Positions 4,305 to 24,898 of a DNA stretch of 32,000 nucleotides are shown one piece after another; position 1 is the first letter of the stretch, and each line of letters starts with the position of its first letter. A model generated the notes under the pieces. The model was not told the DNA's origin. It saw nothing but the letters and a program-made list of their open reading frames with translations, and did no database searches. The translations under genes were made by a program, and so were the position numbers. Source of the stretch: Acaryochloris marina S15 (GTDB lineage Bacteria; Cyanobacteriota; Cyanobacteriia; Thermosynechococcales; Thermosynechococcaceae). The stretch spans positions 570,001 through 602,000 of the forward strand of contig NZ_CP064923.1 of NCBI RefSeq assembly GCF_018336915.1, written 5' to 3'.

Positions 4305-4823
4305 GATGACAATTTTCTCTACCCATTGTGCAGTATATCGTCCAGAGATTGCTTGATAGATAACGGTAGAGGGCAGCTAAGAGCACCAGCGTCTCAAAAT
4401 TTTTGAGTACAGGATGACCAATATGGAGGTATTGAAGTGCATGGTCACCTGTGAAGGCCAATCTATAGAAATAGAGGAGCCGCCTAAAAATTTTAAGACT
4501 TTAAGGATGTCAGTCGAGTAAAGTACTGATCTCTGATTCCATCAGCTCGGGGATAAGTACTTATATTCAGTAGTATCACTGAATTCAATGTTCTAGACTC
4601 AAAATGTTTTTTGTTCTTTTAAATAAAAATAAGTGAAACTACCTAGGACACTAGTCAAAAAGAATAAATAAAGGAAAAGACAATATGAGATTAAAAATTA
4701 GAAGAAATAGGTAATTGTCGCGAGTGGGACCTTTTTCTCTAAGGGCATGCTGTAGATATACACATCATATACATCCACACAATCACCTACATTCTCAGAG
4801 ATGTGCTCCACGAGGTTATACCC

Positions 4824-6365
4824 ATGAAACGCCTGATTCCACTGACTAAGCTGACACTGAGTTGTACATTACTCTTTGCTGCATTAGGTTCACCTGCTTT
4901 AGCTCAAATAGAAGTTGAAGAAGGGGCCGTTTATACCGGCGATATTGATATTTCAGGTGATGAAAATGGGGTTAATTTAGAAACCCTAGATAATGATTGT
5001 GGAACAGTCATTCGTCAACGGGATGATAACGATGATGGTACCCCTGGTCCAGATAATAACCTCGTTGTAAATGCGGGTGAGGATGCCTTTGAAGGCAACG
5101 GCACAGGTTGTGCAAATTCCTCATCCTCTTCCGTAGGTAATTCCTCCAACAACCAAAATAGCCAAACCATCAATGCCAATCCTACGAATATTTCTGAGTC
5201 GGGAGCGATTACATCTGGAGATGCAACCTCCTCAGTAGATGGGGGATATTCCCAGTCCTCTTCTGACGTCAACGGTGGCAACTCTACGTCTCAAGCAGAA
5301 GGAGCAACGGGGGGTAGCTCAACCTCCGGAGCGAATTTAGGTGATGTCAGTAGAGGTGAGACTTCTTTAGGAGATGCGATTCGCGGTGAGACTTCTCTGG
5401 GAGATGCGACTCGCGGTGAGACTTCTCTGGGAGATGCAACCCGTGGCGATACTTCCTTAGGTAATGTCAATCGAGGAAACACAGCGCTTGGCGATAATCA
5501 ATTTAACACCAGCACTTCCGGTGGTACTGCGAACCAAAGCCAGTCGGCCAATACCACAGGTGGAAACGTTACCGCAGGATCCGCCACTCAGAATCAATCC
5601 GCCAATACCACGGGGGGAGATGTGACAGGAGGGGCAGCCAATACCAACGGTGGATCATCCGACACAACCGGTGGCACGGTCACCACCAATGGTGGCTCAG
5701 CCAACCAAAGCGCTAGCACCACAGGAGGGACCGCCAACCAATCCCAAATCGCCAATACGGGCAGTGGTCCGGCAAGTACCAACAGTGGTGACCTTAGCCT
5801 TGCCCCCATCACTGTCCAGACTGGTGATAATAGTGTCAATAATCGCCAAATTACCAACAATACGGCCAATTTCTCCAATACGAGCGCCTTCGCCAATAAT
5901 TCAGTCTTCGGCAAAAATGCCTTCAATGGCAGCGTATCCGGTGGAATGTATGCTCGCCTGAATGCCTCTTCCAAATCTTCGAGCGCTTATAACAATAGCT
6001 TTAGCCATAATCAAGCGGAAGTCGAAGTTGGGATTTTCAAAGCGTTTCAAACAGTGGCATCCAAAAATTCTGCTCGTCGAAAGCGGGTCAAATTTGGCCA
6101 AGACATGATTGTCTACTGTGTCGATTTCCTCAAGCACTATCCCAATCTGATGGCGATTGACGTAGCCACCATTCACAACAGCCATCTCAAAAAGACGGTA
6201 CAGGCTTGTCAAGAGCTAGGTCCCCTTGTTGCGCAACAGCAGCCTCGACAAGTGATCATTAACGTCCCGCCTCAAGCCCAGCCATCACCGGAAGTCTTGA
6301 ACCTCCCAGGTTCAAGAGATCTTCCTTCAGAGCCTCGTCGGATTACCCGTAGCAGTGGCGGTTAA
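4824..6365 (+). CDS. Secreted low-complexity repeat protein, paralogue 1 (long form with C-terminal domain)
   Basis: The ORF track gives 4803-6365, but I prefer the ATG at 4824. Its upstream context ACGAGGTTAT...ATGAAAC is duplicated in front of paralogue 2. Signal peptide: MKRLIPLTKLTLSCTLLFAALGSPALA/QIE. It has an acidic N-domain with a Cys pair, about 300 aa of G/S/T/N/D/Q repeats and a roughly 130-aa C-terminal domain. It aligns end to end with the 8013-9554 product. Confidence 0.85.
   Translation: MKRLIPLTKLTLSCTLLFAALGSPALAQIEVEEGAVYTGDIDISGDENGVNLETLDNDCGTVIRQRDDNDDGTPGPDNNLVVNAGEDAFEGNGTGCANSSSSSVGNSSNNQNSQTINANPTNISESGAITSGDATSSVDGGYSQSSSDVNGGNSTSQAEGATGGSSTSGANLGDVSRGETSLGDAIRGETSLGDATRGETSLGDATRGDTSLGNVNRGNTALGDNQFNTSTSGGTANQSQSANTTGGNVTAGSATQNQSANTTGGDVTGGAANTNGGSSDTTGGTVTTNGGSANQSASTTGGTANQSQIANTGSGPASTNSGDLSLAPITVQTGDNSVNNRQITNNTANFSNTSAFANNSVFGKNAFNGSVSGGMYARLNASSKSSSAYNNSFSHNQAEVEVGIFKAFQTVASKNSARRKRVKFGQDMIVYCVDFLKHYPNLMAIDVATIHNSHLKKTVQACQELGPLVAQQQPRQVIINVPPQAQPSPEVLNLPGSRDLPSEPRRITRSSGG
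5340..5489 (+). repeat. Five in-frame 30-bp tandem units encoding decapeptides G[DN]xxRG[EDN]T[SA]L
   Basis: It translates as GDVSRGETSL GDAIRGETSL GDATRGETSL GDATRGDTSL GNVNRGNTAL. Units 2 and 3 differ at only a few bases. Confidence 0.9.
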
Positions 6366-6433
6366 GCACCTGCCTTTACTAAGCAACTGCCTTTACGCTC
6401 TACATCGCCACTAAATATACGAGGTTATTCAAG

Positions 6434-7519
6434 ATGAAACTCTATTCCAGATTAAATGTTCTCACTGCCAATACCCTAGGCCTAGCCTTTTTGATGACTG
6501 TGTCAGGAGCACCTGCCATAGCCCAAGTTGAAGTCGAAGAAGGTGCAATTTTTACGGGAAATATTACCGGTGGTCCCACAGAAATTCAAACCTTGGATAA
6601 CGATTGTGGCACAACCATTAGCCAACGGTCAGATGACGGCACACCCAATGATGTTGACAACAACATCGAAGTCACAGCCCAAGAAGATGCATTTTCTGGG
6701 ATTGGCACAGGTTGTGCAGAATCCACTTCTAGCGTGACTGGAGAATCTGTAACCAATACTAATACGGAGAATATCACTGCCAGCCCTGACAATACTTCCA
6801 CCACGGAAGCCATCACTTCTGGTGATGCGACTTCTGCTGTAGATGGAGGTTTTTCAGAGTCTGATTCTGATGTCAGTGGTGGGAATTCTTTTAGCGAAGC
6901 CGAAGCTGCAACGGGTGGTAGCTCAACGTCCAATGCAACTCAAGGAGATGTGACCGAGGGCAATACAACTTTTGGTGATGTCTCCCGTGGCAACACCGTT
7001 TTTGGCGATGTTTCTCGTGGCAACACTATTTTTGGCGAAGTGACCCAAGGGAATACAACCTTCGGTGATGTCACTACAGGTGATACCGATCTAGGAGGCA
7101 ACACCTTTGACGCAGAAGTCATCAGTGGCTCGGCTGACCAAGAACAGATGCTTGATACTACCGGTGGAGATGTCGTTGCTGGCAACACAGATCAGACCCA
7201 AGCTTTGGATACAATAGGCGGAGATATCACCGGTGGGACTGCCGATATGATGGGTGGGACCGCCAATCTGGTGGGTGGTGATGTGACCACAACAGGTGGT
7301 TCTTCCAATCAAACTGGCTCTGTTACAGGTGGAACAGCTGACCAAAGTCAGTTTGCTGAAACCATCAGTGGACCAGCTACTACCAACAGTGGTGACCTGA
7401 CCATTGCCCCTATTACAGTGAACACGACTGATTCTTCAGTCGATAACAGTAGTGTTACGAACAGCTACGTCAACAGTGCTGTCGTCAATAGCTCCAACGT
7501 GAACACTGTTAATCCTTGA
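6434..7519 (+). CDS. Secreted low-complexity repeat protein, paralogue 2 (short, more acidic form lacking the C-terminal domain)
   Basis: 361-aa ORF starting 68 nt after paralogue 1, with GAGG 10 nt upstream of the ATG. It shares the signal peptide, the N-domain (EVEEGAIFTG, LDNDCGT, GTGCAES), the decapeptide repeats and the GG-x repeats. It stops about 25 aa after the conserved SGDLTIAPITV motif, and a strong terminator follows. Confidence 0.85.
   Translation: MKLYSRLNVLTANTLGLAFLMTVSGAPAIAQVEVEEGAIFTGNITGGPTEIQTLDNDCGTTISQRSDDGTPNDVDNNIEVTAQEDAFSGIGTGCAESTSSVTGESVTNTNTENITASPDNTSTTEAITSGDATSAVDGGFSESDSDVSGGNSFSEAEAATGGSSTSNATQGDVTEGNTTFGDVSRGNTVFGDVSRGNTIFGEVTQGNTTFGDVTTGDTDLGGNTFDAEVISGSADQEQMLDTTGGDVVAGNTDQTQALDTIGGDITGGTADMMGGTANLVGGDVTTTGGSSNQTGSVTGGTADQSQFAETISGPATTNSGDLTIAPITVNTTDSSVDNSSVTNSYVNSAVVNSSNVNTVNP
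6944..7093 (+). repeat. Five in-frame 30-bp tandem units (decapeptide repeats, paralogue 2 version)
   Basis: It translates as GDVTEGNTTF GDVSRGNTVF GDVSRGNTIF GEVTQGNTTF GDVTTGDTDL. Confidence 0.9.
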
Positions 7520-7576
7520 GTCTAAGTGTGTAACTTGTGTGGATAGAGATGGAATCTCGCTAATAGACTCATGATA

Positions 7577-7607
7577 CTGCGCTAGTTTTTTCTAGCGCAG
7601 TTTTTTT
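7577..7607 (+). terminator. Rho-independent terminator ending the paralogue 1-2 transcription unit
   Basis: A perfect 9-bp stem, CTGCGCTAG (7577-7585) and CTAGCGCAG (7592-7600), has a TTTTTT loop and is followed by T7 (7601-7607). Confidence 0.85.
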
Positions 7608-8012
7608 GGGGATTTCTTATCTAAATTGAGATTATCAAATATTGCTCTACTTATAACGCACCCCTAAACATTTACTTATTTAATACATACTATTTTTGCC
7701 TGATTAGATTGAGAAGATTGAATGGTCTGGGCTTTGGATTGAGATGGCAACCTGCCAGTATTTGATCAGTATAAATACTGAGAGATTAAATCATGATTTG
7801 GCATGACTCTATATTTCACACAAAAACTGAGAGAAATACGGATAAATCTTGCAGCTTTAAGAATAAATAAACATTTTTAATTTATTTAAGAAAAAAGATT
7901 TTTTAGGTATTCCTATTGAGGATTTCTATCTCAGATCAAGGAAAGATAAAAATATACAAGTTATGCATATGTTCCTCAGCAACCCAGTGTTGCTCATTAG
8001 CGAGAAAAAACC

Positions 8013-9554
8013 ATGAAGACGCATTTTGGATTAAAAACGATTGCCGGTAGCACTCTTGGCTTAATGCTGGTTTTCTCGGCTTTTGGGCAGTCAGGATTGG
8101 CGCAAACGACTGAAGTAGAAGAAGGCGCGATTTACACTGGAGATATCACCTTAGATGGCAACGAAAATGCCGTCGATATCGAAACGTTGGATAACGATTG
8201 CGGCACCAACTTTGACCAGCGCGATGATGACGGTACGGATGGGACTTCTAATAATATTGATATTCAAGCCGGTGAAGATGCTTTAGAAGGCATTGGAACT
8301 GGCTGTGCTAACGCCAGTTCATCATCAGTCGGTAACTCTTCAGATAACACCAACACCACCACCATCAATGCCAGCCCAGACAATACGTCCACCTCTGAAG
8401 CGATAACCTCTGGAGCGGCTACATCGAGTGTTGAAGGAGGCTACTCACAATCCCAATCTAACGTCAGTGGCGGCGACTCCAACTCTTTTGCTGAAGGTGC
8501 AACGGGTGGCAGCTCCACCTCCCAGGCTGATTTAGGAAATGTATCTCGCGGAGATACAACGCTAGGCAATACGACTCGTGGCGATACAACGCTAGGCAAT
8601 ACGACTCGTGGCGATACAACGCTAGGCAATACGACTCGTGGCAATACTGCTTTGGGTGATGTCAGCAGAGGGGATACTACGTTAGGGAATAACGATTTTA
8701 ATGCTGCGACGACAGGTGGTTCAGCTAATCAAGACCAATCTGCTAACACCAATGGCGGGAATGTTACCGGTGGCTCTGCCAATCAAGACCAATCTGCTAA
8801 TACCAATGGTGGAAATGTCACCGGTGGCTCTGCCAACTCTACGGGTGGATCGGCTAATACGCTAGGCGGCAATGTCAATACGACGGGTGGATCCGCCGAT
8901 CAGAATGCGGTCACCAATGGTGGATCAGCGACTCAAGACCAAAATGCTGCCACGAATAGCGGTGAGGCCTTGACCAATAGCGGTAATGTCAGTGTGGCCC
9001 CCATCACCATTGATACGAGAGACAGTTCCGTGGATAACTCCGCAGTCACTAACAACCACGTCAACATAAGCAATCAAAGTTCTTTTAACCGCAATTCAGT
9101 GTTCAACGACAATTCATTTAGTGGCAGAGTTTCCGGTGGATTCTATGCCCGAGCCAATGCATCTACTCAGAACAGTTCAGCTTATGGAAATGACTTTAGT
9201 AGCACAGCTGCAGAAGTCGAAGTTGGAGTATTTAAGGTCTTCCAAACAGCTGCCCGTCGCGATGCCGCAGATCGTGCTGAGATGAAGTTTGCCCAGAATA
9301 TGATTGTCTACTGCACTGATTTTCTGAAGCACTACCCCAACTTGATGACCATTGATGTGGCCACGATTACAGACGCTAGTGTCCGGGAGACTGTCCAATC
9401 TTGTCAGGATTTAGGCCCCATGGTGACCCGACCGCAGCAGGTCATTATCAATGTTCCACCCCAGGCACAGCCTTTACCCCAGTCCCAAGTTTTACCGGGA
9501 TCTCGTCAAGTCCCTGATTTACCTCGCAGCATTACCCGCAGTAGTGGCGGTTAA
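8013..9554 (+). CDS. Secreted low-complexity repeat protein, paralogue 3 (long form with C-terminal domain)
   Basis: 513-aa ORF. Signal peptide ends ...GQSGLA/QTTEVEEGAIYTG. Its architecture matches paralogue 1, including the C-terminal domain (AEVEVGVFKVFQ...MIVYCTDFLKHYPNLMTIDVATI...VQSCQDLGP...QVIINVPPQAQP...ITRSSGG*). A roughly 400-bp AT-rich region precedes it. Confidence 0.85.
   Translation: MKTHFGLKTIAGSTLGLMLVFSAFGQSGLAQTTEVEEGAIYTGDITLDGNENAVDIETLDNDCGTNFDQRDDDGTDGTSNNIDIQAGEDALEGIGTGCANASSSSVGNSSDNTNTTTINASPDNTSTSEAITSGAATSSVEGGYSQSQSNVSGGDSNSFAEGATGGSSTSQADLGNVSRGDTTLGNTTRGDTTLGNTTRGDTTLGNTTRGNTALGDVSRGDTTLGNNDFNAATTGGSANQDQSANTNGGNVTGGSANQDQSANTNGGNVTGGSANSTGGSANTLGGNVNTTGGSADQNAVTNGGSATQDQNAATNSGEALTNSGNVSVAPITIDTRDSSVDNSAVTNNHVNISNQSSFNRNSVFNDNSFSGRVSGGFYARANASTQNSSAYGNDFSSTAAEVEVGVFKVFQTAARRDAADRAEMKFAQNMIVYCTDFLKHYPNLMTIDVATITDASVRETVQSCQDLGPMVTRPQQVIINVPPQAQPLPQSQVLPGSRQVPDLPRSITRSSGG
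8553..8642 (+). repeat. Perfect 3 x 30-bp tandem repeat inside paralogue 3
   Basis: GATACAACGCTAGGCAATACGACTCGTGGC occurs three times without a mismatch (8553-8582, 8583-8612, 8613-8642). It is in frame and encodes DTTLGNTTRG three times. It lies within the wider decapeptide array at 8535-8684. Confidence 0.95.
8715..8822 (+). repeat. 2 x 54-bp near-identical tandem repeat encoding GGSANQDQSANTNGGNVT
   Basis: Units 8715-8768 and 8769-8822 encode the same 18 aa and differ only at synonymous positions. Degenerate GG-x copies continue to about 8960. The equivalent region in paralogue 1 is 5520-5768. Confidence 0.9.
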
Positions 9555-9602
9555 ATCCGATCTGGTATCGTTCCCGTCGATCATTACTTTGGATATAGAC
9601 CC

Positions 9603-10406
9603 ATGAAAAACTTCCACCTGACCACCCTAATTAGCTTCGTCGTACTCTCCACCATTCCAGCATCTGCGGTGGCCCTACCAATTGATTTTGATGATTCCAC
9701 CAAAATTAAACTCATTGAGATGGGGATTGATGCTCTAACCTCAGACAAATCAACGTCGGAGACATCAGAAACCGAAGAAACCCATTCAGCTGCGACGACT
9801 GAACCGTCAACAACGAATACTGCTGCCCCGAAACTAGACTCAAAAGCACCAGTAACTGGAACATCTAATAGCGAGCAGAATGAACTGCTCACTCCGAAAG
9901 CAACGAAAACAACATCGGCTGTTCCAAGTCCGAATACTCAGCAGGTTCACTGTGCCCAAGTTCAACAACATTGCTTAGAAGTTTCACATGCTACGCGTAG
10001 TGTTGGTGTATATGAAGGGGGGATGTTGCAGCAAACCCTGCCCTTGAATAATGGACAAGCTGTTTACAACGTTCCTACAGGAGGCACCAGCGTCACAACC
10101 TACCCTCAACCTGTGCCTTATCAACCTGTTCAACCTCTTACCTATCCTCAAACTCAACCGACGGTTTATCCAGTGGGCAGTTACCCAGTAGCCCCCAACG
10201 CGAATCCTTGGGGCTATGGTTACCCGACGGCTTATCCTCAGTCTGTTTATGCACCTACTGTGCCAGTTTATGGAACCCCAGCTCCTGTATTCCAGGCAGT
10301 GCCTAGAGTAAGCTCCCAACAGGATGTGATGGTGATTAATGTTGAGCCGAAAGCTGAAGCTCAAACCATCATCTTGGACAATAACTATCCTTTTCAGGGC
10401 CGTTAG
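9603..10406 (+). CDS. Secreted Ser/Thr-rich then Tyr/Pro/Gln-rich protein with a YkuD-N-terminal-like Cys-pair module
   Basis: 267-aa ORF starting 48 nt after paralogue 3. Signal peptide: MKNFHLTTLISFVVLSTIPASAVA. It has an acidic S/T/E region, then VHCAQVQQHCLEVSHATRSVGVYEGG, which resembles the N-terminus of the next gene. A YPQPVPYQPVQPLTYPQTQPTVYP-type tract follows, and the C-terminus is DVMVINVEPKAEAQ.... Confidence 0.75.
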   Translation: MKNFHLTTLISFVVLSTIPASAVALPIDFDDSTKIKLIEMGIDALTSDKSTSETSETEETHSAATTEPSTTNTAAPKLDSKAPVTGTSNSEQNELLTPKATKTTSAVPSPNTQQVHCAQVQQHCLEVSHATRSVGVYEGGMLQQTLPLNNGQAVYNVPTGGTSVTTYPQPVPYQPVQPLTYPQTQPTVYPVGSYPVAPNANPWGYGYPTAYPQSVYAPTVPVYGTPAPVFQAVPRVSSQQDVMVINVEPKAEAQTIILDNNYPFQGR

Positions 10407-10436
10407 TCCTAGCAATATTTGTGGAGAATGTGGACG

Positions 10437-10922
10437 ATGAAAGGACTAGCATTAGGCGTTTTGACGGGTTTAGTGGGACTCCTATGGTCTCCAATGGCTC
10501 AAGCAGATGACTTATCGCTGCATTGTCGCCAAGTGCAGGGAGGTTGCTTGCAAATTTCTAAAGCCAAGCGGACCGTCACATACTATCAGCAAGGAAAAAA
10601 CCAAAAATCTTGGCCGATTTCCATTGGCCGGCCAGGACTGGACACACCTGCCGGGAATTTCTGGATTTATGAAAAAGGGACGATGGTGGACTGGCAGTCT
10701 CCTTCAGGGGAGGTGATTCCTTATAACAGTCCTCGTAATCCGATGGCAGGAATTTGGATGGGCTATGTGATTGCGGATGGTGTTCCCCTAGGGTTGCATG
10801 GAACCAATACACCCAATTTGATTGGTCAAGCGGTGTCTGCCGGATGTAATCGAATGCATACCCACCATGCTAAAGAGCTATATAAATTTGTAGTAGTGGG
10901 TGATCCGGTGTATGTCCGATAA
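10437..10922 (+). CDS. L,D-transpeptidase (YkuD domain)
   Basis: The ORF track starts at TTG 10419. The ATG at 10437 has GGAG 11 nt upstream and yields the signal peptide MKGLALGVLTGLVGLLWSPMAQA. The YkuD catalytic signature is HGTNTPNLIGQAVSAGCNRM (His...Ser-x-Gly-Cys-x-Arg). The substrate-binding start of the domain is TPAGNFWIYEK. Confidence 0.85.
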   Translation: MKGLALGVLTGLVGLLWSPMAQADDLSLHCRQVQGGCLQISKAKRTVTYYQQGKNQKSWPISIGRPGLDTPAGNFWIYEKGTMVDWQSPSGEVIPYNSPRNPMAGIWMGYVIADGVPLGLHGTNTPNLIGQAVSAGCNRMHTHHAKELYKFVVVGDPVYVR

Positions 10923-10931
10923 GTTATCTGA

Positions 10932-11330
10932 TTACCGACTTGTGCAAACCCAACTCACAACCTTACAGTTGGGGCCGTATTTTTGGCAGGATTGCAGGGC
11001 ATAAGATTCGGCTGTTGCTCGATCGACTCCCCAACCAGATCCTGCTGAGTAATCAGAGGCGCGAGCTAGGGCACCACAGCCATTTTTAAACACAACTAAT
11101 GACTTACAATCCCCAGTCTTGGCATATTTTTCACAAAAACGAATGGCTACATTGGTTGCTTCCTGCGGAGTCGTGTAGTCATAGGAATAACCATGGCTAC
11201 CGGTGGAAACAGAATAGGCCATCGCACCATAGTTCGCGTTAGCTAGAGCGTTTTGAGCCCCAACTAATCCCACGGCTGGCACACTAAACATCGTTGCAAT
11301 CAGCACTTGAGATATTTTCGAATGGAACAT
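10932..11330 (-). CDS. DUF4189-like secreted Cys-rich protein
   Basis: 132-aa ORF with a signal peptide, followed by YGAMAYSVSTGSHGYSYDY...AIRFCEKY...GDCKSLVVFKNGCGALA...ALQSCQKYGPNCKVV. This matches the pattern I recall for DUF4189. Confidence 0.6.
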   Translation of the reverse strand: MFHSKISQVLIATMFSVPAVGLVGAQNALANANYGAMAYSVSTGSHGYSYDYTTPQEATNVAIRFCEKYAKTGDCKSLVVFKNGCGALARASDYSAGSGWGVDRATAESYALQSCQKYGPNCKVVSWVCTSR

Positions 11331-11588: not shown

Positions 11589-12422
11589 ATGGATCCATTC
11601 AGTTTAGGGCTATTTGCAGTCTTGGGTATTGCGGCGGGAACCTTAGCTGGACTCTTAGGGATTGGCGGTGGCATGTTGATTGTGCCAGGGTTGTTTTACC
11701 TCTTTGATCTGATTCAACTCCCTCAAGACTCCCTGATGCATATGGCAGCGGGTAGCTCTATGTGCATTATGATTTGTACCGCCGCATCTTCGACCTGGGC
11801 CCATCATCGACAAGAGCATATTCAATGGTCTATTTTTCGCTCTATCATTGCTGGCATTGCCGTGGGTGTAGTGAGTGGCAATCTTTTAGCCAATCGGATG
11901 CCAACCCAAATTTTAGAATTGATTTTTGGCATCTTTTTATTGGTCGTTTCTACCAAGATATTCCTGGAGAAAAAATCTGAGGAAGAAGAACCAACGGTGG
12001 GGGCTCCCGGCATCGTCGCTACGAGTGCCGTGGGTATGGTGATTGGGTTTAAGTCGGGTGTGTTGGGGATTGGAGGTGGAGCCCTAAGTGTGCCGTTTCT
12101 CCTCTATTGTGGCCTCCCCATGAAAAAAGCCAGTGGGACCTCTGCCTCCTTCACATTACCTATCGCCATTGTTGGGACCCTCTCGTTTTTGCTTTTGAGC
12201 GGGACTCAAACTGATATTCCCTGGTCAACGGGTTATGTCTATTGGCCTGCAGTATTGCTAGTGGCCCCGTTTACGATACTGGGGGCACCTGTGGGAGCTA
12301 AATTTGCCGGTATCGTTGCTCCTGAAAAGCTGCGAACGATCTTTGCCGGATTATTACTGGTGATTAGTATGCGGATGTTGTCTGGGACTGGCTTAATTGC
12401 CTGGGACTTCCCGCTGATCTAG
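11589..12422 (+). CDS. TauE/SafE family sulfite/anion exporter (multi-pass membrane protein)
   Basis: 277-aa hydrophobic ORF. The internally duplicated motif GLLGIGGGMLIVP / GVLGIGGGALSVPFL is typical of TauE/SafE (DUF81). Confidence 0.8.
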   Translation: MDPFSLGLFAVLGIAAGTLAGLLGIGGGMLIVPGLFYLFDLIQLPQDSLMHMAAGSSMCIMICTAASSTWAHHRQEHIQWSIFRSIIAGIAVGVVSGNLLANRMPTQILELIFGIFLLVVSTKIFLEKKSEEEEPTVGAPGIVATSAVGMVIGFKSGVLGIGGGALSVPFLLYCGLPMKKASGTSASFTLPIAIVGTLSFLLLSGTQTDIPWSTGYVYWPAVLLVAPFTILGAPVGAKFAGIVAPEKLRTIFAGLLLVISMRMLSGTGLIAWDFPLI

Positions 12423-16086: not shown

Positions 16087-17262
16087 GTGCGCGATCAAAA
16101 TGATTTGAACTCTCTAGATAACCGTTGTCATTCTCAGACCCTCAATCACTGTGTGGCTGTGGGGGTGGCGGCTTTACTGGTCAGCTGTCAATCTACACCC
16201 CAAACCTCACCGAATCTGCTCGAAAGCCCTGCTTTTTCTCAGCCTTCTTTGGCCGCGTCCATTGCCCAAGATTCTGTATTGGTTCCAGAGCAGTATTTGC
16301 AGCGGTATCAACATATTCCTGATGCAGAGGCATGGCGGCAAGATCTCTACGAACGAAAAGATTTTGCCAAGATTGAAACACGGGTCAACGAGTATTTACG
16401 GGCCGAAAGACAGGACGAGCATAAGTCTGGCTTTTTGATACGTCTGTATAGGACCCTTGGCAAATTTCCCAATCCCAAAAATGAATATACGTCCCAAGAC
16501 AAGCAAGATTATCTCCATCAAACAGCTGTTTTGCAGGAATGGATGGCCGCTTACCCGACCTCCCATATTCCTTATCTGATTCAGGGAGAATTGCATGTAA
16601 ACTACGCCTGGAAATTCCGAACGGGGCAAGTCGCTCGTAAGGTCACGGAAGAAGGATGGCAGTTATTTCACTACTACCTCCAAGAAGCAGCCGGTGATTT
16701 TAGCGTCGCTAGTCAACTCAATCCGAATGATCCGAATATTTGGAACGAACTCCTGCACCTGGCTGCTAGAACAAACCTAGATCCCTACACCCCAGAGTAT
16801 TTCTTTGAACAAGGCCTGAACGCGAATCCCTCCCATTTAGGACTGCATACGACTTATCTGCAGACCCTATATCCCCAATGGGGGGGGAGCCAGAAAAAAA
16901 TGTTGGCATTTGCCAGAGCAGCGTACAAGAAGGGACAAGCTACCCAAAAGCCGATGCTGGGCAATGTTCTGCTTTTGGCAGCCCGAGAAATAGATCGGGA
17001 TGATGCTGTTCATCCGATCACCTGGTCAGAAATACAAACGGTCTATCAAGATATTTTTGCCCAATATCCTGATTACCTCCGCATGAGGTATTACTATGCC
17101 CATGATGCATTAGAGAGAGAAAAATTCGATGTAGCGATCCAGCAATTTGAAATCATTGGCGATCGGTGGACGACAAATACCCTTTGGGACGATCTCAATG
17201 AATTCCACCGTTCTCGTGTCTATGTCTACTTCAAAGAGGCGGTTCAACTGTATAAGCTATAG
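16087..17262 (+). pseudogene. 5' portion (391 codons) of a helical-repeat lipoprotein gene truncated by IS insertion (possibly DUF4034-like)
   Basis: Lipobox AALLVSC is near the N-terminus. The ORF ends ...EAVQLYKL, and its TAG stop (17260-17262) is the first three bases of the IS630-like element. Removing the IS plus one TA continues the frame into 19937-20209. Confidence 0.8.
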
Positions 17263-17378
17263 ATCTTCAGAAAAGCATCCGTGGTTTTAGCGACACTACA
17301 TCTTCATTAAATATAGTAACTAGCTCCTGATACTCTTAGCTCTGGCAAGGATTTCAAGATTATCAGAGGTCATCCAGT

Positions 17379-17527
17379 ATGCTCGCACAATTCAAACTGC
17401 GCTTTACCCAATCAACACGCAAAAAGATTGAAGCTAAACTGCGCCAGGCATACGGGAGTCAGAATTTACGTCTGGTCAAACGTATTAGTGCTTTATTGCA
17501 GCTTGGTCAAGGTGGTTCAGTGGCACA
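17379..17527 (+). pseudogene. IS630-family transposase, N-terminal fragment (codons 1-49) cut by the nested IS
   Basis: It reads MLAQFKLRFTQSTRKKIEAKLRQAYGSQNLRLVKRISALLQLGQGGSVA, then runs into the inverted repeat of the inserted element. Confidence 0.8.
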
Positions 17528-18959
17528 CAGCAATTGTAAATTCAAAATTTTGGCAAGCTAGGTTGTAGTCGTTGAGGATGTATTCATACACTTGCAGAGC
17601 CCCAGACGATGAATGAAGGTGTTCTAAATTTCCCTCTCTTACTGCACTGGCTACATCAGCTCATTGAGCACCTCGATGATCCACGTCAACCCAGTAATGG
17701 CACCAAATTTAGTCTCAAAGATATTGTATTAGGCGCATTTGCTGTCTTCTTTATGCAATGTCCTTCGTTTCTGGAGTACCAACGCCATGTTCATAGTCGT
17801 CATGGTCGTGACAACGCCCAAGCCCTCTTTGAGTTAACAGAACTCCCCACGAGCAACCAAATCAAGAATGTTTTGGACTTGATCGCATTTCGTCTTCTGT
17901 TTCCCATTTTTTATCAAATTTATAGCGTTCTCCTACGACGAGGTTATCTAGAGCAATATAAGGTTCTAGGTGGACACCTGTTGGTAGGGCTAGACGGCAG
18001 CGAGTATTTTTCCTCAAACCGGATTTGTTGCGATCAGTGTTCTACCAAAACCCATCGGGATGGGAGTGTCACCTATACGCACACCGCCGTGTTGCCCGTC
18101 CTCGTTTGTCCGGAAATTGAACATGTCATTTCTCTGGCCCCAGAGTTCATTCGTCCTCAAGATGGTGCGGAGAAACAGGATAGTGAAACCGCTGCGGCCA
18201 AACGGTGGATCAAGGGGCATGCTCAAGGGTTTGACGGAGCCAAGATTACGGTTCTTGGCGATGACCTCTATAGCCGTCAACCGATGGTGGAGACTTGTTT
18301 AGAGGATGAGTTGAACTTCATTTTTGTCTGTTTGCCCTCCTCCCATCCAGAGCTATATGAATGGGTAGAGTATTTAGAAGGTATTGGAGATGTTGAGCAT
18401 CTAGAGACTCGGGGCTGGAACGGTCGCTATCATGAAATTTGTCAGTATCGCTATTACAATCGCATCCCCCTGCGTGAGGAGCTACCAGCAGTGATGGTCA
18501 ACTGGTGCGAAGTCTCTGTTACTCGTGCTGCTGATGGAAAGACTATGTATCACAACGCGTTCATTACTCACCATTTCATCAATGACCAAAGTGTGGCCGA
18601 GATTGTCAGTGCTGGACGTGCCCGATGGAAAGCGGAGAATGAAGGACACAATGTCCTCAAAACCAAGGGCTATCACTTAGAACATAATTTTGGTCATGGT
18701 CAGAAGAACCTTGCTGCTGTGCTATTGGTACTCAACCTGTTGGCATTCTTATTTCATACCGTCTTGCACTTGGTGGACTCCACTTATCAACGCATGCGAA
18801 AGCAACGGGGAACCCGACAAGGCTTTTTTCACGATATTCAGACTTTGACCAAATACTTGCTCTTTGAGAGTTGGGAGCATTTGCTCCAGTTTATGTTGGA
18901 TGATCCAGAGCCTCGAATAGCAGCCGATACCTCATGAAATATTGAATTTACAATTGCTG
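17528..18959 (+). mobile_element. 1432-bp DDE insertion sequence (IS4-superfamily-like) nested in the IS630 transposase gene
   Basis: Perfect 18-bp terminal inverted repeats, CAGCAATTGTAAATTCAA (17528-17545) and TTGAATTTACAATTGCTG (18942-18959), extend to 22/24. A 9-bp direct target duplication AGTGGCACA is at 17519-17527 and 18960-18968. Confidence 0.9.
17609..18937 (+). CDS. DDE transposase of the nested IS (apparently intact)
   Basis: 442-aa ORF filling the element. Candidate catalytic contexts are LLVGLDGSEYF, VLGDDLY and GRARWKAENEGHNVLK (an RW.xEN-type E motif). I cannot assign the exact IS family without a search. Confidence 0.8.
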   Translation: MNEGVLNFPLLLHWLHQLIEHLDDPRQPSNGTKFSLKDIVLGAFAVFFMQCPSFLEYQRHVHSRHGRDNAQALFELTELPTSNQIKNVLDLIAFRLLFPIFYQIYSVLLRRGYLEQYKVLGGHLLVGLDGSEYFSSNRICCDQCSTKTHRDGSVTYTHTAVLPVLVCPEIEHVISLAPEFIRPQDGAEKQDSETAAAKRWIKGHAQGFDGAKITVLGDDLYSRQPMVETCLEDELNFIFVCLPSSHPELYEWVEYLEGIGDVEHLETRGWNGRYHEICQYRYYNRIPLREELPAVMVNWCEVSVTRAADGKTMYHNAFITHHFINDQSVAEIVSAGRARWKAENEGHNVLKTKGYHLEHNFGHGQKNLAAVLLVLNLLAFLFHTVLHLVDSTYQRMRKQRGTRQGFFHDIQTLTKYLLFESWEHLLQFMLDDPEPRIAADTS

Positions 18960-18968
18960 AGTGGCACA

Positions 18969-19905
18969 GGTAGCTGAAACATTGGCACTAGGCGAACAAA
19001 CGATCAGGGATTATCTGCATGCATTTCTAAAACGAGGTATCGCTAGCTTTAGATACAAAGCGTCTCAAGGACGTCGCAGCAAACTCACTCCACGGCAACG
19101 ACAACAGCTCAAGTCATGGATTAAAGCAGGTCCGCTCAAAGCTGGATACGAGTGTGGTTGTTGGAGTGCATTAATGGTTCAAGACCTGATTGCGAAACGC
19201 TTCAATGTTTCCTATCATCCCCATTATGTGAGTACTCTACTGAGGAACTTAGGCTTTTCATTTCAAAGAGCACGGTTTGTTGCAGCTCATCTCAATGAAG
19301 CCAAGCGACAAGAATGGATGACACACAAATGGCCTGAGATTTTGCGTTTATCAGCAGCCAAAGATGCCCTAATTTTATTTGGGGATGAGGCCAGTTTTGC
19401 GCAGTGGGGGTCGTTAAGCTACACCTGGAGTCTTCGTGGAGACCAGCCAACATTGCCCACCAGTGGTAAACGGAAGGCTTACAAGGTGTTTGGATTAATT
19501 GATTATCATTCTGGTCAGTTCTTCTATCAAGGTCAGACGGGACGCTTCAATTCTGAAGGGTATACTGCTTTTCTAACTCAAGTACTCCAGCAGACTCACA
19601 AGCATATTATTCTCATTCAGGACGGGGCTAGATATCACACCAGTAAAGCAACTAAGCAGTTCTTTGACCAGCAATCCGCTCGCCTTACTCCTTTCCAATT
19701 ACCCACATATTCTCCTGACTTCAACCCAATTGAATTCTTGTGGAAGAAACTCAAAAAACGCAGCACACACCTACGGTTCTTCAAGCAATTTGATGACTTA
19801 GTTCAGCAGGTCGATGAGGGGCTACTGTACTTTAGTCAGACTCCCAATGAAATTACTGTCTTAATGGGCAAATATTGCAAAACCTTGGGTACACAAGCTG
19901 CCTAG
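18969..19905 (+). pseudogene. IS630-family transposase, C-terminal portion (resumes in frame after the nested IS and its duplication)
   Basis: Joining 17527 to 18969 restores ...GGSVAQVAETLALGEQTIRDYL..., a 361-codon ORF (149 + 937 = 1086 nt) with an HTH N-terminus and a DDE core. Confidence 0.8.
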
Positions 19906-20313: not shown

Positions 20314-22641
20314 TCACCGGGTTCTTTGGCCAAGGGAGACTAAGACATTCAGCTTCCATAAGGGAACCCCTGCTCTCTGGGCGGCGGCTTCACGACTATA
20401 CCCTCGACGGAGTAGTTTAATCGCGTCTTGAGTTTTATTCCAGGTTGACCCATTGAGCACAATCTTACGGTTTTGGCGGGCCACCACTAACCCACGGGTG
20501 ACCAACTGAGCTTCCTTCAGGGCAGCCTGGGAATATTTTGGCTTAGCACTACTCCTGACCGCTACGGGAGGACGAGGTTGAGAAGGACGACTGACCACAG
20601 GCTTGCTTACAGGTCGACGGGGACGAGTCGCCCTAGGTGGGGTTTGTCGGGCGGGTAGCGGAGGCAGAGGATTTTGCCGTAGCACTGCAGGTTCTGGAGA
20701 GAATGGGGGAGGGTATGCAGCGATAAAAGGCAAGGGTGGTGCCGGTTTGACTTTTGCGGCTTGTTTGGGCTTAACCTGGGCAACGGGCGGTTTGGGTCTG
20801 TTGGTCGGCGCTTTGGCAACCGTGCCCCCAATCGCCACGGTTTGTAGCACTTGTTTGCCATTCAGGTCGGTGGCTTGCAGGGTAATTGCCCCTGGCTGTT
20901 GGGGGTTGAGCTGGTACTTCATCGAGCCTGATGCGGGTATTTTGCCGGGGCTAGGCAAAATTGCAACGCTGGGATTATTGCCACCCTCTACTTTCCAAGT
21001 TAACTTCACATGATCTTGGCCTGGCTTTAAAACAAATTGTGCAGGTGCTTTTTGACCATTGATTAGAAAGCTGGCAATTCTTAGATTTTTAGCCTGTACG
21101 TTCATCGGCCCAATAGTTTTGGACAGGGTGAAAGGTTGCTGCTCTTGTTGGTAAGACGCGGTGATCTTGAAAAAATATTGTCCGGGTTTGCGAGCAGCCG
21201 TTGGTACCTTTTGACAGGTCAACGTAGGCGTAAAGCGACAATATTTGGTCAGGGTATCAGGAAGCTTGCCATTGACTAATTGATACCGTTGTAACAAAGC
21301 CGCCTCGGCATTGTTAGCGTCGACGGTCATAATCTGTAACTCTGTCAGTTGGCTAGGGTTGGCAATTTCCCAGTTCAGCTGAATCGGGCCAGATGGAGCG
21401 GAGGCCACGGGACCTGAAGTCGATGTGTTGGCCCTAGAGGCTGGTGCATAAAAGCGGGTAATAAGCGGTACAGCATTGGGTTTGAAGGCAATTAGACTAG
21501 TGATTTGGGTTGCCATCGGCTCGCTGGCATTGTCACTCGAAAAAGCCTGTACCTTGAACTGGTATTGGCCTGGATTGGTCGTCCCTGTTGTAATGCCAGT
21601 ACATTTTAAAGCGCCAGTTTCGGGCTGATCAGATTGACAGAAATTGGAGTTTTGACTGGGGGTGCTCCGCTGTAATTCTTTCGGAATCCCCTCATCAAAT
21701 CGGAAAGTCTTGGCCACTTCAGATTGGCCTTGGTATTCCCGAAGAATCACTAACTTTGCAAGCTTCTGGCTATTCTTGATGGTCCAGCTGAGCTGAATAT
21801 CTTTTTGTCCGGTTTGGGGGACAACCGTTTGACTGGAGCGGAGGGCTGCGATGGCAGGGTCAGTGGGTTGACGCCAGAGGAACTGCCACAACAGAGCAGA
21901 AGATGTGCCTAAAGCCAAGAGTAACAGCCCGAGAAGTTTGAGGCCGTGGGAGCGAGGATATGGCTGCCATACTACCCCTGCTTGGGCTAGTAATTGCGGT
22001 AGCGGGATGCCATTGGTATCTTGCAAATCCACTTGGAATTGGAATTTGCGGCCCTTCCCGAGCCATGGTCTGAGCCACCACCGTCGAGGCTGAACTATGA
22101 GGTCCACCTTGCCTGTCTGATCAGGACCCAGATCGAGTTGGAGAGGCTCGGCCTTGAAGGTCAGGCCATTCCGAGCAGGCAATCCTTTAGGCTGCACCGT
22201 CAAAACTCTTTCAAATCGAGACGTATTGGTAATCAATAGTTGGTATACACCAACGCCATCCTTAATAAAGGTCAGATCTGGCGTGAGCATGATGTCAATA
22301 TCATCTGCCACTAGAAATTGCAGATACACTTGGTCTTCCCAGAGAATCTCCCCCTCTGAAGAGACTAGTTGCAGCTTAAGCTGATGCTGGCCAATGGCGG
22401 CAACTTCAGTGGGGTGAATTAACACCTCGATTTGATTGTGATGGCCCTGTTCGGCACTCATGGCGGGTGCACCTAGGGTGTAGCAGTCTGAGGATAATTG
22501 ACTTCCCTTAAGCTGATAGTCTCGCCCCTGACTTGCAATATTTTCTACGGTGATGGTGATCAGTAGCTTGGTGCCTAACTTGAGTGCATAGGGCTGATCT
22601 ACTGCCGTAACCGGTGCAATCGTAACCTTAGGGGAAGTCAT
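20314..22641 (-). CDS. Large single-pass membrane protein with repeated beta-sandwich-like modules, a Pro/Lys/Arg-rich linker and a small helical C-terminal domain (unknown function)
   Basis: 775-aa ORF. It has one hydrophobic segment (LKLLGLLLLALGTSSALLWQFLW), three internally similar modules, a PKPPVAQVKPKQAAKVKPAPPLP...PRPPVA tract and the C-terminus LLRRGYSREAAAQRAGVPLWKLNVLVSLGQ. Confidence 0.75.
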   Translation of the reverse strand: MTSPKVTIAPVTAVDQPYALKLGTKLLITITVENIASQGRDYQLKGSQLSSDCYTLGAPAMSAEQGHHNQIEVLIHPTEVAAIGQHQLKLQLVSSEGEILWEDQVYLQFLVADDIDIMLTPDLTFIKDGVGVYQLLITNTSRFERVLTVQPKGLPARNGLTFKAEPLQLDLGPDQTGKVDLIVQPRRWWLRPWLGKGRKFQFQVDLQDTNGIPLPQLLAQAGVVWQPYPRSHGLKLLGLLLLALGTSSALLWQFLWRQPTDPAIAALRSSQTVVPQTGQKDIQLSWTIKNSQKLAKLVILREYQGQSEVAKTFRFDEGIPKELQRSTPSQNSNFCQSDQPETGALKCTGITTGTTNPGQYQFKVQAFSSDNASEPMATQITSLIAFKPNAVPLITRFYAPASRANTSTSGPVASAPSGPIQLNWEIANPSQLTELQIMTVDANNAEAALLQRYQLVNGKLPDTLTKYCRFTPTLTCQKVPTAARKPGQYFFKITASYQQEQQPFTLSKTIGPMNVQAKNLRIASFLINGQKAPAQFVLKPGQDHVKLTWKVEGGNNPSVAILPSPGKIPASGSMKYQLNPQQPGAITLQATDLNGKQVLQTVAIGGTVAKAPTNRPKPPVAQVKPKQAAKVKPAPPLPFIAAYPPPFSPEPAVLRQNPLPPLPARQTPPRATRPRRPVSKPVVSRPSQPRPPVAVRSSAKPKYSQAALKEAQLVTRGLVVARQNRKIVLNGSTWNKTQDAIKLLRRGYSREAAAQRAGVPLWKLNVLVSLGQRTR

Positions 22642-23290: not shown

Positions 23291-24898
23291 TCATATCGAA
23301 TTCCTGCCATCTAATCGAGTCAAAACTTTTTGAAAATAAGACTGAATAGAAGGCTGCAGCCGCTTCCATGCCCACCCCAAGGCGCTTTCAAGCCAGGCAG
23401 TGATGCGATCTAACCCAGCTAGAATTCGTTCTAAAGGGTGTTTTTCATAGCCCACCATCACGGCATCTACTTCAATTTCGATGGAGCCATCTTGGGTATA
23501 GATTGTTGCTGGAGAGGCAGTCGTTTCTAACTGCTGGGATACTTCAGTAGCCAAGATCGGAGACCCAGGGATTGATGCTGTTGTATTTGCTGGCGAAGCT
23601 GTAGGTATTTTTTCGCTATACAGGTCAGCCCAGGATAGCGTTGAGAACGCTTCGTTGGGTGAGGGGGCAGACTGTTGTGGGGCTTGAGCTGCGGGCTGGC
23701 CTTGGGTGGGTTGAGGTCGTCCCAATAAGGCCGCCATTGCTGATCGTAAGGTACTGGGAATCCAGGTTGCAGCATACCGGACTGGATGTTCAGGGGGCTG
23801 TCCGCCTAAAGTCGGGTCTTGACTGAGAATGCTAAGGCTAGGCTGAAGTTGAGACTGCTGCTGTTTCCAATGTTGAACGACATAGTCCGACAGGTCCGTG
23901 GCGGTAGGTCCCATGACTTCCCAAGAGGTGGTCTCCCAAGATGAGATCGCACCGTCTAACATCTCAATGGCATCTTGGGTCAGTTTCGGGGTCAGCTGAT
24001 CCAAGGTCGCTGCCAATCCCTGGGGTAAGGATAACGGTAGCGGGTATGAGGCTTCATCTCCTGGCAAGGCCAAGGCTTCCTGAAATAAATTGGCTTTTGC
24101 CGCCATGGGCCCTGTTTGCATCCAGGCCATAGCTTTGCGGAAGGCTCTAACGGGAGGCAGCATTTGCGATCGCGTTTTTGGCATCGGCAACTGCCGGAAG
24201 TCTGTTTTCGCAAGGTGCTGGAAATCTTTGCTGAGTCGCTCTTGTCGTCGATAATTGGCTAACTCCCACGTCATCAGCTTGTGCAATTCTCGTTGCTGGG
24301 CAGGGGTAAGAACATCGATGGCCTCATTATCAGGCGTCACCAGGGATACATGGGTCGATTGCAAATCACAGGCAATCCCCTGAATTTTGACCGCTGGTTC
24401 TGAGGTAATGCCTAACCAACGAGTGGCTTTGTTGTGGAGAGGATTTCGCTCTGCCCAGCGTTGTATCCACTTCTGATACCGGACTCGAATCGTCGGACGT
24501 CGGTGAGAGAGGCCTTCAATCTGAACAGAAAATTGAGGTTCTTCAGCCCATGCGTCGTCTTCTGCGTCTTCGTCCAGTTCAGATTCGAGGGTATCAATTT
24601 GAATAGCCGCTAGTACATTGCGAATGGGGCCATCTGCATTGCTCGCAAGGCTATCTTGACTCGGATCGGTAACAGCCTTCAGCAGTCGCTGGCCCTGTAC
24701 ATCTCCCTGACGGAGGGCTTGTTGGGTAAAGCGGGAAACTTGAAATAATAAATAGATAGGGTACAACCCCATCTGCATCCCCCAGAGGCTGGTGACTTTA
24801 GCCTGGCGTAAATTCCGTTGCCATTGCTCCGTCAACTCGCGGGACTGTTGGAGGATGAGATTAAATAATCGACTCTGGTAACGGCTTTCCGCTGTCAT
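23291..24898 (-). CDS. Hypothetical protein (535 aa), unknown function
   Basis: A long ORF with ordinary composition. It has an acidic patch (ELDEDAEDDAWAEEPQF) and a Q/P/A-rich low-complexity segment near the C-terminal third. I recognise no family motif. Confidence 0.7.
   Translation of the reverse strand: MTAESRYQSRLFNLILQQSRELTEQWQRNLRQAKVTSLWGMQMGLYPIYLLFQVSRFTQQALRQGDVQGQRLLKAVTDPSQDSLASNADGPIRNVLAAIQIDTLESELDEDAEDDAWAEEPQFSVQIEGLSHRRPTIRVRYQKWIQRWAERNPLHNKATRWLGITSEPAVKIQGIACDLQSTHVSLVTPDNEAIDVLTPAQQRELHKLMTWELANYRRQERLSKDFQHLAKTDFRQLPMPKTRSQMLPPVRAFRKAMAWMQTGPMAAKANLFQEALALPGDEASYPLPLSLPQGLAATLDQLTPKLTQDAIEMLDGAISSWETTSWEVMGPTATDLSDYVVQHWKQQQSQLQPSLSILSQDPTLGGQPPEHPVRYAATWIPSTLRSAMAALLGRPQPTQGQPAAQAPQQSAPSPNEAFSTLSWADLYSEKIPTASPANTTASIPGSPILATEVSQQLETTASPATIYTQDGSIEIEVDAVMVGYEKHPLERILAGLDRITAWLESALGWAWKRLQPSIQSYFQKVLTRLDGRNSI

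Follow-up and report, generated by a model that had tools for sequence, protein, structure and literature searches.

The chaplins of Streptomyces are produced as long forms with a sortase signal (ChpA-C) and as short forms (ChpD-H), and RTX proteins use a C-terminal type I secretion signal. L,D-transpeptidases (LDTs) attach a variety of proteins, an internal Lys being one of the sites used, and a YkuD enzyme could take a protein amine as the acceptor (PMC12729407). The attachment site is a C-terminal Lys (-K-R, -K-K or -K-T) in Lpp, OutB and Lpg1810 and the internal Lys21 in LimB27, while Coxiella BpbA (N-terminal Gly-Gly or Ala-Gly) and Brucella Omp25 (N-terminal Ala-Asp) are outer-membrane beta-barrels; the known LDT-substrate cases are in Proteobacteria, and cyanobacteria are mentioned 0 times in the review (PMC12729407). 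Here we analyze a five-gene locus in a 32,000-nucleotide (nt) stretch of the Acaryochloris marina S15 genome (contig NZ_CP064923.1, positions 570,001 to 602,000; "the window" below), in which three paralogous repeat-protein genes, par1 to par3, lie next to a gene for a Tyr/Pro-rich protein (gene 4) and an LDT gene. With moderate confidence, we conclude that the locus is arranged in two transcription units and that its three exported repeat proteins, an orphan family restricted to one clade, have a structural role in the envelope or extracellular matrix.

The genes of the locus, each an open reading frame (ORF), are as follows, with lengths in amino acids (aa).

4824-6365, + strand: par1 (paralogue 1), 513 aa; signal peptide, acidic N-domain with a Cys pair, Lys-free G/S/T/N/D/Q repeats (10-aa array encoded at 5355-5455), and a C-domain that has its own Cys pair and a Pro-rich tail with RSSGG at its end.
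6434-7519, + strand: par2 (paralogue 2), 361 aa; signal peptide, N-domain and repeats as in par1 (a 10-aa array at 6947-7071 and a 7-aa array at 7232-7278), without the C-domain.
8013-9554, + strand: par3 (paralogue 3), 513 aa; architecture as in par1, with a 10-aa array at 8545-8647 and an 18-aa array at 8715-8836.
9603-10406, + strand: gene 4, 267 aa; behind the signal peptide come a conserved N-terminal LPIDFDDSTKIKLIE, a linker of variable S/T/E sequence, a partial YkuD-like segment, a Tyr/Pro/Gln-rich stretch and a conserved VMVINVEPKAEAQTIIL tail.
10437-10922, + strand: LDT of the YkuD family, 161 aa from ATG, with an alternative TTG start at 10419.

An earlier note on this DNA had described five consecutive same-strand genes, three of them clear paralogues, and our analysis agrees: every ORF was found in place on the + strand, the gaps of 48 nt (par3 to gene 4) and 30 nt (gene 4 to LDT) are correct, and the paralogues share 55% and 64% identity over their full length, with the N-domain alone giving a BLASTP E of 4e-23, so that chance similarity is far from explaining their kinship. 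The sequence motifs that it listed were all recovered, namely EVEEGA[IV][YF]TG, LDNDCGT and GTGCA in the N-domain, which is 27% Asp+Glu, and VYC.DFLKHYPNLM and CQ[ED]LGP in the C-domain. The middle region is of low complexity, as claimed (16% Gly, 16% Ser, 17% Thr and 14% Asn, with 0 Lys, His, Trp or Met), and Tandem Repeats Finder resolved the nested repeats into units of 30 nt (10 aa), 54 nt (18 aa) and 21 nt. When we assessed signal peptides by eye, looking for a basic N-terminus, a hydrophobic core and A-x-A, all five products appeared to carry one of the Sec type, and Cys pairs are present in the products.

The 10-residue repeat unit reads xLG[DN]xxRGxT, and along the repeats Gly is autocorrelated at lags of 5, 10, 15 and 20, with about one hydrophobic residue in every 10. 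The N-domain and repeat region together (~290 aa) lack Lys in nearly every member and contain 3-7 Arg. In mature par1 and par3 all Lys are confined to the C-domain, where three are invariant (K57, K74 and K88 of alignment A5), and mature par2 has no Lys at all. We also observed that every long paralogue in every lineage ends in an invariant Arg-Ser-Ser-Gly-Gly (9537-9551 and 6348-6362), which matches no known sorting or attachment signal. Close to the C-terminus the long paralogues carry VIINVPPQAQ (9441-9470 in par3, 6255-6284 in par1) and gene 4 carries MVINVEPKAE (10329-10358), each invariant inside its own family. We rejected the two as a common motif, the match being too short to be significant (BLASTP E 0.74, hhalign E 0.1).

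The earlier note did not recognise the N- and C-domains as any named family, and searches of Pfam, NCBIfam and PDB sequences and with HMMER bear this out. A Pfam scan of the three paralogues at E <= 1 returned only GETHR, below its cut-off (21.2 versus 22.4 bits), and an NCBIfam scan of the paralogues returned no match. The sequences of solved chains in the PDB gave no match at E <= 1, apart from one spurious one, to the full protein, the N-domain profile or the C-domain profile. In an exhaustive search of 1.84 billion cluster representatives, a HMMER profile of the C-domain found only its own cluster, P0001, and two marginal matches (E 6e-4). These pointed to DUF7507/DUF11 Ig-like repeats, a kinship that we rejected, the scores being sums of 5-14 stretches of 4-8 bits each. 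Motif scans of 185,579 species-representative genomes of GTDB, made with N-domain motifs and then with LDT peptides, detected no relative, and none of these genomes, among which the source genome is apparently absent or masked, carries ETLDNDCG or EKGTMVDW. JGI metagenomes, scanned with the C-domain and the N-domain separately, and PLSDB plasmids, searched by tblastn, likewise contained no relative. Word-index searches proved unreliable for such low-complexity queries (the full-length query, saturated with low-complexity words and scored on 8000 candidates, missed par2, and the C-domain query missed even itself) and were not used as evidence on family size. NCBI labels the family members hypothetical proteins and UniRef labels one of them a 'beta strand repeat-containing protein'; in the literature that we searched there was no description of these proteins or of the locus. 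Judged by these searches, the paralogues are true orphans whose domains belong to no described family.

We then asked where the family occurs and how it evolves. The members recovered are all from A. marina S15 or Moss Beach, from assemblies of a few sequencing runs in Logan, or from two metagenome assemblies in ENA. The family, as recovered, is limited to a single species cluster of Acaryochloris marina and a lineage that is sister to it. Par3 is 100% identical to P0001 / QUY43206.1, annotated as 'hypothetical protein', and GenBank entries QUY43204-QUY43208 correspond to par3, the LDT and near-identical copies of the remaining locus genes. The locus is also present in Acaryochloris sp. 'Moss Beach' (CP071717, HRE53_15725-15740), which has an average nucleotide identity of 98% to strain S15 (PMC9029297). 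A divergent lineage, ERZ6864208, has its own par1-like, par2-like and par3-like genes; in this comparison each paralogue forms an old orthologous group that is conserved separately from the other two, and all three groups persist in a lineage with saturated synonymous sites. Each keeps its own repeat sequence across lineages, with the number of 10-residue units differing by one between orthologues. The 361-aa length of par2 is kept in L008, and the L010 copy is a partial fragment only. Recent gene conversion among the paralogues was considered and rejected, since what remains of their DNA similarity is confined to patches 45-129 nt long that are 74-84% identical.

To measure selection we calculated the ratio of nonsynonymous to synonymous substitution rates (dN/dS) by the Nei-Gojobori method. 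Between the window and L008 it was 0.053 for par1, 0.075 for par2 and 0.033 for par3. Between the window and L007, a comparison in which synonymous sites are saturated (dS 1-3.7), it was 0.036 for the repeat part of par3, 0.039 for its C-domain and 0.044 for the LDT (range for the LDT, 0.04-0.09), and 0.059 and 0.041 for the neighbouring PsbQ and TauE genes. Gene 4, at 0.12-0.25, evolves several-fold faster than its neighbours. The paralogues, repeats included, are under purifying selection as strong as that on the housekeeping genes beside them. Several long ORFs occur in other frames of the repeat DNA, as they would if the annotated ORFs were artefacts of low-complexity DNA and not genes. 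We give this reading practically no credence: signal peptides, Cys pairs and lengths are conserved across lineages, and it is refuted by a dN/dS of 0.03-0.08 in the annotated frame at dS up to saturation.

Constraint of this strength on a region made of G/S/T/N/D points to a defined structure, or to a surface dense in functional sites, and not to a spacer. The same data bear on the proposal that the paralogues are disordered, hydrophilic and possibly glycosylated exports, mucin- or hydrogel-like, with a function unrelated to the gene 4-LDT pair, which would remodel peptidoglycan. The extreme G/S/T/N composition, the irregular spacing of GG units (5, 7, 11 and 13 residues) and the lack of similarity to any solved chain all fit disorder, as do the AlphaFold models, in which the repeat region has predicted local distance difference test (pLDDT) scores of 23-41. 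However, the repeat part of par3 is as constrained as the C-domain and the housekeeping neighbours, which is unusual for disordered linkers, and repeat sequences specific to each paralogue are kept across lineages. The low pLDDT, moreover, needs no explanation beyond the shallowness of the alignment, which held 4-5 close sequences. We consider disorder of this kind quite unlikely.

We return to the interpretation of the paralogues as structural proteins of the envelope or matrix, and propose how they might work. After export, the acidic N-domain and the C-domain would each be stapled by a disulfide, and the repeat region, with Gly at every 5, 10 and 20 residues, would take a defined, elongated, beta-rich conformation, not a random coil. 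The long forms par1 and par3 would attach or nucleate through the C-domain, a predicted helical hairpin with a Pro-rich tail, and the short par2 would co-assemble without an anchor. In the weakest step of the scheme, the co-transcribed LDT and gene 4, a truncated paralogue of it, would work on peptidoglycan at the assembly site, either tethering the repeat proteins covalently or merely remodelling the peptidoglycan nearby. AlphaFold offers weak hints of such an arrangement: short strands recur every 10 residues, and the Cys pair of the C-domain has a helix on each side.

Several results weigh against this interpretation. For a fibre fold or beta-rich rod there is no model of usable confidence, the pLDDT being 32 for par3 (5-sequence alignment) and 37.5 for the C-domain (4-sequence alignment), and low scores of this kind are also what disorder would produce. 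The family is too narrow for co-occurrence statistics. Pfam and NCBIfam scans of the locus proteins detected no SLH, PEP-CTERM, LPXTG or T9SS C-terminal domain, no signal peptide ends in an L-x-x-C lipobox, and there is no hydrophobic C-terminal helix. The suggested division of labour between long and short forms resembles that between long and short chaplins, or between CsgB and CsgA, by analogy only.

We next considered whether the proteins might bind cations or serve adhesion in epiphytic or biofilm life, the N-domain and the GD/GN turns binding Ca2+ and faces that bear RGD or are rich in Thr binding a host or a mineral surface. Moss Beach and S15 are epiphytes of intertidal red algae and grow as biofilms or clumps (PMC9029297), and the acidity of the N-domain and the RTX-like pattern of one hydrophobic residue per unit with Gly-Asp turns would suit such a role. 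Four RGD tripeptides lie in the 10-residue repeats of par3 (8532-8712) and are kept in the L008 and L009 orthologues, but par1 and par2 carry RGE or RGN where par3 has RGD. Moreover, Pfam gave no match to RTX repeats (HemolysinCabind) or to any other calcium-binding family, and the repeat period is 10, not 9. The proposal overlaps the structural interpretation instead of excluding it, and as a separate explanation we regard it as highly doubtful.

The last two genes are related to each other. The fifth gene had been called a YkuD enzyme, and Pfam agrees (PF03734, 73.7 bits versus a cut-off of 23.4, E 3e-20). The protein consists of a signal peptide and a catalytic domain, without LysM or any other peptidoglycan-binding domain. 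Its catalytic motif HGTNTP..SAGCNRM is intact, with His121 and Cys137, the H-x15-C of the pattern HG..S-x-GC-x-R, invariant in 5 orthologues, and the orthologues are 85-96% identical. The closest solved structure is B. subtilis YkuD, 1y7m (1.5e-10), and HGTNTPNLIGQAVSAGCNRMH aligned to the His/Cys motif of 1y7m. The LDT is thus a YkuD-family member with predicted transpeptidase activity. Residues 110-163 of gene 4 (9930-10091) proved homologous to residues 23-76 of the LDT (10503-10664), with a BLASTP E of 3e-9 and an hhalign probability of 94.5% (E 8e-8). The shared segment comprises a CX6C element, which the LDT shares only with gene 4, and the first strands of the YkuD domain. In gene 4 the catalytic half with His and Cys is absent and a Tyr/Pro-rich stretch stands in its place; Pfam gave no match to gene 4 at E <= 1. 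That gene 4 carries a partial duplicate of the LDT is, by this homology, a new finding. Three islands of the product are invariant, namely its mature N-terminus, the piece resembling YkuD and the C-terminal VMVINVEPKAEAQTIIL, as are three Lys (K34, K36 and K250). Possibly it is a pseudo-enzyme, an adaptor or a regulator. Weak matches of its Tyr/Pro stretch to Pierce1 (E 0.014-0.15) were compositional, and we rejected that relationship.

The division of the locus into two transcription units is drawn from its non-coding DNA, in which two elements stand out.

4708-4764, + strand: conserved non-coding block TAGGTAATTGTCGCGA ... GGGCATGCTGTAGATATACACA, 60-115 nt upstream of par1.
7576-7608, + strand: hairpin like that of an intrinsic terminator, followed by a U run, with a 10-bp stem that includes 6 G-C pairs; closes the par1-par2 unit.

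The strong terminator that the earlier note had placed after par2 is well supported: the hairpin at 7576-7601 with its U7 run folds at -21.4 kcal/mol (z = -6.0), 0 of 200 shuffled sequences fold as well, and the stem is identical in L008. The gaps between par1 and par2, par3 and gene 4, and gene 4 and LDT fold no better than shuffled sequence. Since the sole terminator follows par2 and the other short gaps are unstructured, we divide the locus into a par1-par2 unit and a par3-gene 4-LDT unit. In a divergent lineage with saturated dS, the two gaps of the second unit measure 55 and 34 nt and so are still short, and the three genes look like one transcription unit. The block at 4708-4764 is preserved in alignment with L008 and with the divergent L010, where the surrounding intergenic DNA is scrambled, and is a candidate promoter or leader of the par1-par2 unit. 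An Rfam scan of the whole window matched no family, and the locus contains no long inverted repeats.

Two short repeats were also observed in this DNA. The identical 13-mer AAGAATAAATAAA occurs at 4660-4672 and 7859-7871, some 155-165 nt upstream of the par1 and par3 starts; it could be a regulatory site that the two genes share, or AT-rich DNA may have matched by chance (pairwise E 0.007). The par1-par2 spacer holds a 17-nt direct tandem repeat, TAAGCAACTGCCTTTAC, in two copies (6363-6396), beginning at the par1 stop codon.

The earlier note had suggested that the locus may build and anchor an extracellular or periplasmic fibre or matrix. The part of this proposal that stands is that the genes are real, paralogous and exported and that par3, gene 4 and LDT are operon-like; the anchoring and the fibre itself are unsupported. 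Homologues do neighbour an LDT, the par3-gene 4-LDT order with its short gaps being unchanged in all of the at least 9 contexts recovered. All of these contexts, however, come from close relatives in which PepP, TauE, PsbQ and PepN keep their places too, and because unrelated neighbours are equally syntenic, the synteny has no functional weight. The adjacency of gene 4 and LDT is accounted for by ancestry, as gene 4 holds the partial LDT duplicate. The link to peptidoglycan anchoring is thus one of position only.

Could the LDT nevertheless join the repeat proteins, gene 4 or both covalently to peptidoglycan and so make a wall-anchored fibre? Apart from the operon-like arrangement, with its unstructured gaps that stay short in the divergent lineage, the active site of the LDT is intact, and the mature long forms have their Lys solely in the C-domain, three of them invariant. 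LDTs are also known to act on a variety of proteins, in some cases at an internal Lys (PMC12729407). On the other hand, the known terminal attachment motifs are absent. There is no C-terminal Lys acceptor, the ends being -RSSGG (par1, par3), -NTVNP (par2) and -QGR (gene 4), and no N-terminal Gly-Gly, Ala-Gly or Ala-Asp, since cleavage at A-x-A as judged by eye predicts mature starts of Q-[IVT]-E-V-E-E in the paralogues and L-P-I-D in gene 4. An invariant Lys that might act as an internal acceptor of the LimB27 type is present in the C-domain of par1 and par3 and in gene 4, and par2 has none. In addition, par1 and par2 form a separate unit from the LDT, and neither the synteny nor the adjacency of gene 4 to the LDT, a result of duplication, speaks for anchoring. 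We judge a wall-anchored fibre of this general kind unlikely.

The restriction of Lys to the C-domain is compatible with, and suggestive of, site-specific anchoring; covalent tethering of par1 and par3 through these residues is an improbable but not negligible option. One specific version, an LDT-dependent heteromeric fibre in which par1 and par3 would sit on meso-diaminopimelic acid through C-domain Lys, par2 would extend the fibre, and gene 4 would act as a spacer or specificity factor, seems to us very doubtful. If such a wall-anchored fibre existed, it would be the first LDT substrate from outside the lipoproteins, beta-barrels and membrane proteins, and, to our knowledge, also the first in cyanobacteria.

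We also looked at the genes around the locus. Immediately downstream, and in convergent orientation, lies one further gene.

10932-11330, - strand: DUF4189 gene (Pfam PF13827, 1.6e-24), secreted Cys-rich product of 132 aa.

Its stop codon is separated from that of the LDT by 9 nt. It is missing at the same position in the L007 lineage (L007 2272-2436), where par3-gene 4-LDT persists, and so it is not an obligate partner; probably it lies outside the module. In the window the gene for the TauE/SafE exporter is intact (11589-12422, 277 aa), while in Moss Beach CP071717 it is called as two pieces of 130 and 160 aa (L001 16769-17603), pointing to a frameshift or to an error in that assembly. A variable region (16087-19905) separates the PepN gene from a 775-aa ORF without a Pfam family. 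It contains a DUF4034-like ORF, a 442-aa ORF that matches nothing in Pfam and an IS630-type DDE_3 transposase (18961-19905), all three of which are missing at that position in the relatives L006 and L015. The 775-aa product (20314-22641, - strand) has a long Pro/Lys/Arg-rich C-terminal region, and two further large ORFs also have no Pfam family (23291-24898, - strand, 535 aa; 29600-31042, + strand, 480 aa).

Secreted surface repeat proteins beside a wall enzyme are of a familiar general kind, and a new mechanism is not demonstrated here. If the repeats do form a defined structure, the proteins of the bacterial surface or envelope would gain a new fold family, one made almost entirely of Gly, Ser, Thr, Asn and Asp and yet under enzyme-like constraint. 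If the link to the LDT is real, the range of LDT protein substrates would extend past proteobacterial lipoproteins and outer-membrane proteins. Because the distribution is very narrow, the significance is limited, and at present the locus is to be seen as a lineage-specific envelope innovation in an epiphytic, biofilm-forming cyanobacterium more than as general biology.

Finally, we compared the locus with the systems that it most resembles. Like the chaplins, it is a set of secreted paralogues in which only the long forms have an extra C-terminal module, and a wall-linking enzyme is encoded nearby. Unlike them, it has no chaplin domain or LAXTG by Pfam, its host is of Gram-negative type, and the enzyme is an LDT and not a sortase. 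The paralogues share Sec export, a Gly/Ser/Asn/Gln-rich composition and imperfect tandem units of ~18-23 residues with curli CsgA/CsgB and other Gln/Asn/Gly/Ser-rich beta-solenoid amyloids, and curli too has paralogous major and minor subunits. They differ from curli in being much longer, with separate Cys-stapled N- and C-domains, in matching neither Curlin_rpt nor any PDB chain, and in having no csgEFG-like secretion genes nearby. Among Pfam repeat profiles, they match none of Curlin_rpt, chaplin, HemolysinCabind and pentapeptide repeat.

The RTX beta-roll (GGxGxDxUx) is similar in its short Gly/Asp-rich tandem units, its single hydrophobic residue per unit and its acidic extracellular marine setting; the paralogues differ from it in their 10-residue unit in place of 9, in the lack of a HemolysinCabind match and in their Sec signal peptides. 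With the LDT-anchored proteins E. coli Lpp, Dickeya OutB, Coxiella BpbA and LimB27, Brucella Omp25 and Legionella Lpg1810 the locus shares the combination of an exported protein and a YkuD enzyme (PMC12729407). The locus proteins differ from these in having no lipobox, no C-terminal Lys, no N-terminal Gly-Gly, Ala-Gly or Ala-Asp, and no sign of a beta-barrel or membrane anchor. The LDT itself is without the LysM or other peptidoglycan-binding domain and has an extra N-terminal CX6C, unlike B. subtilis YkuD (1y7m), but it has the same domain, and the catalytic His and Cys of the two enzymes align.

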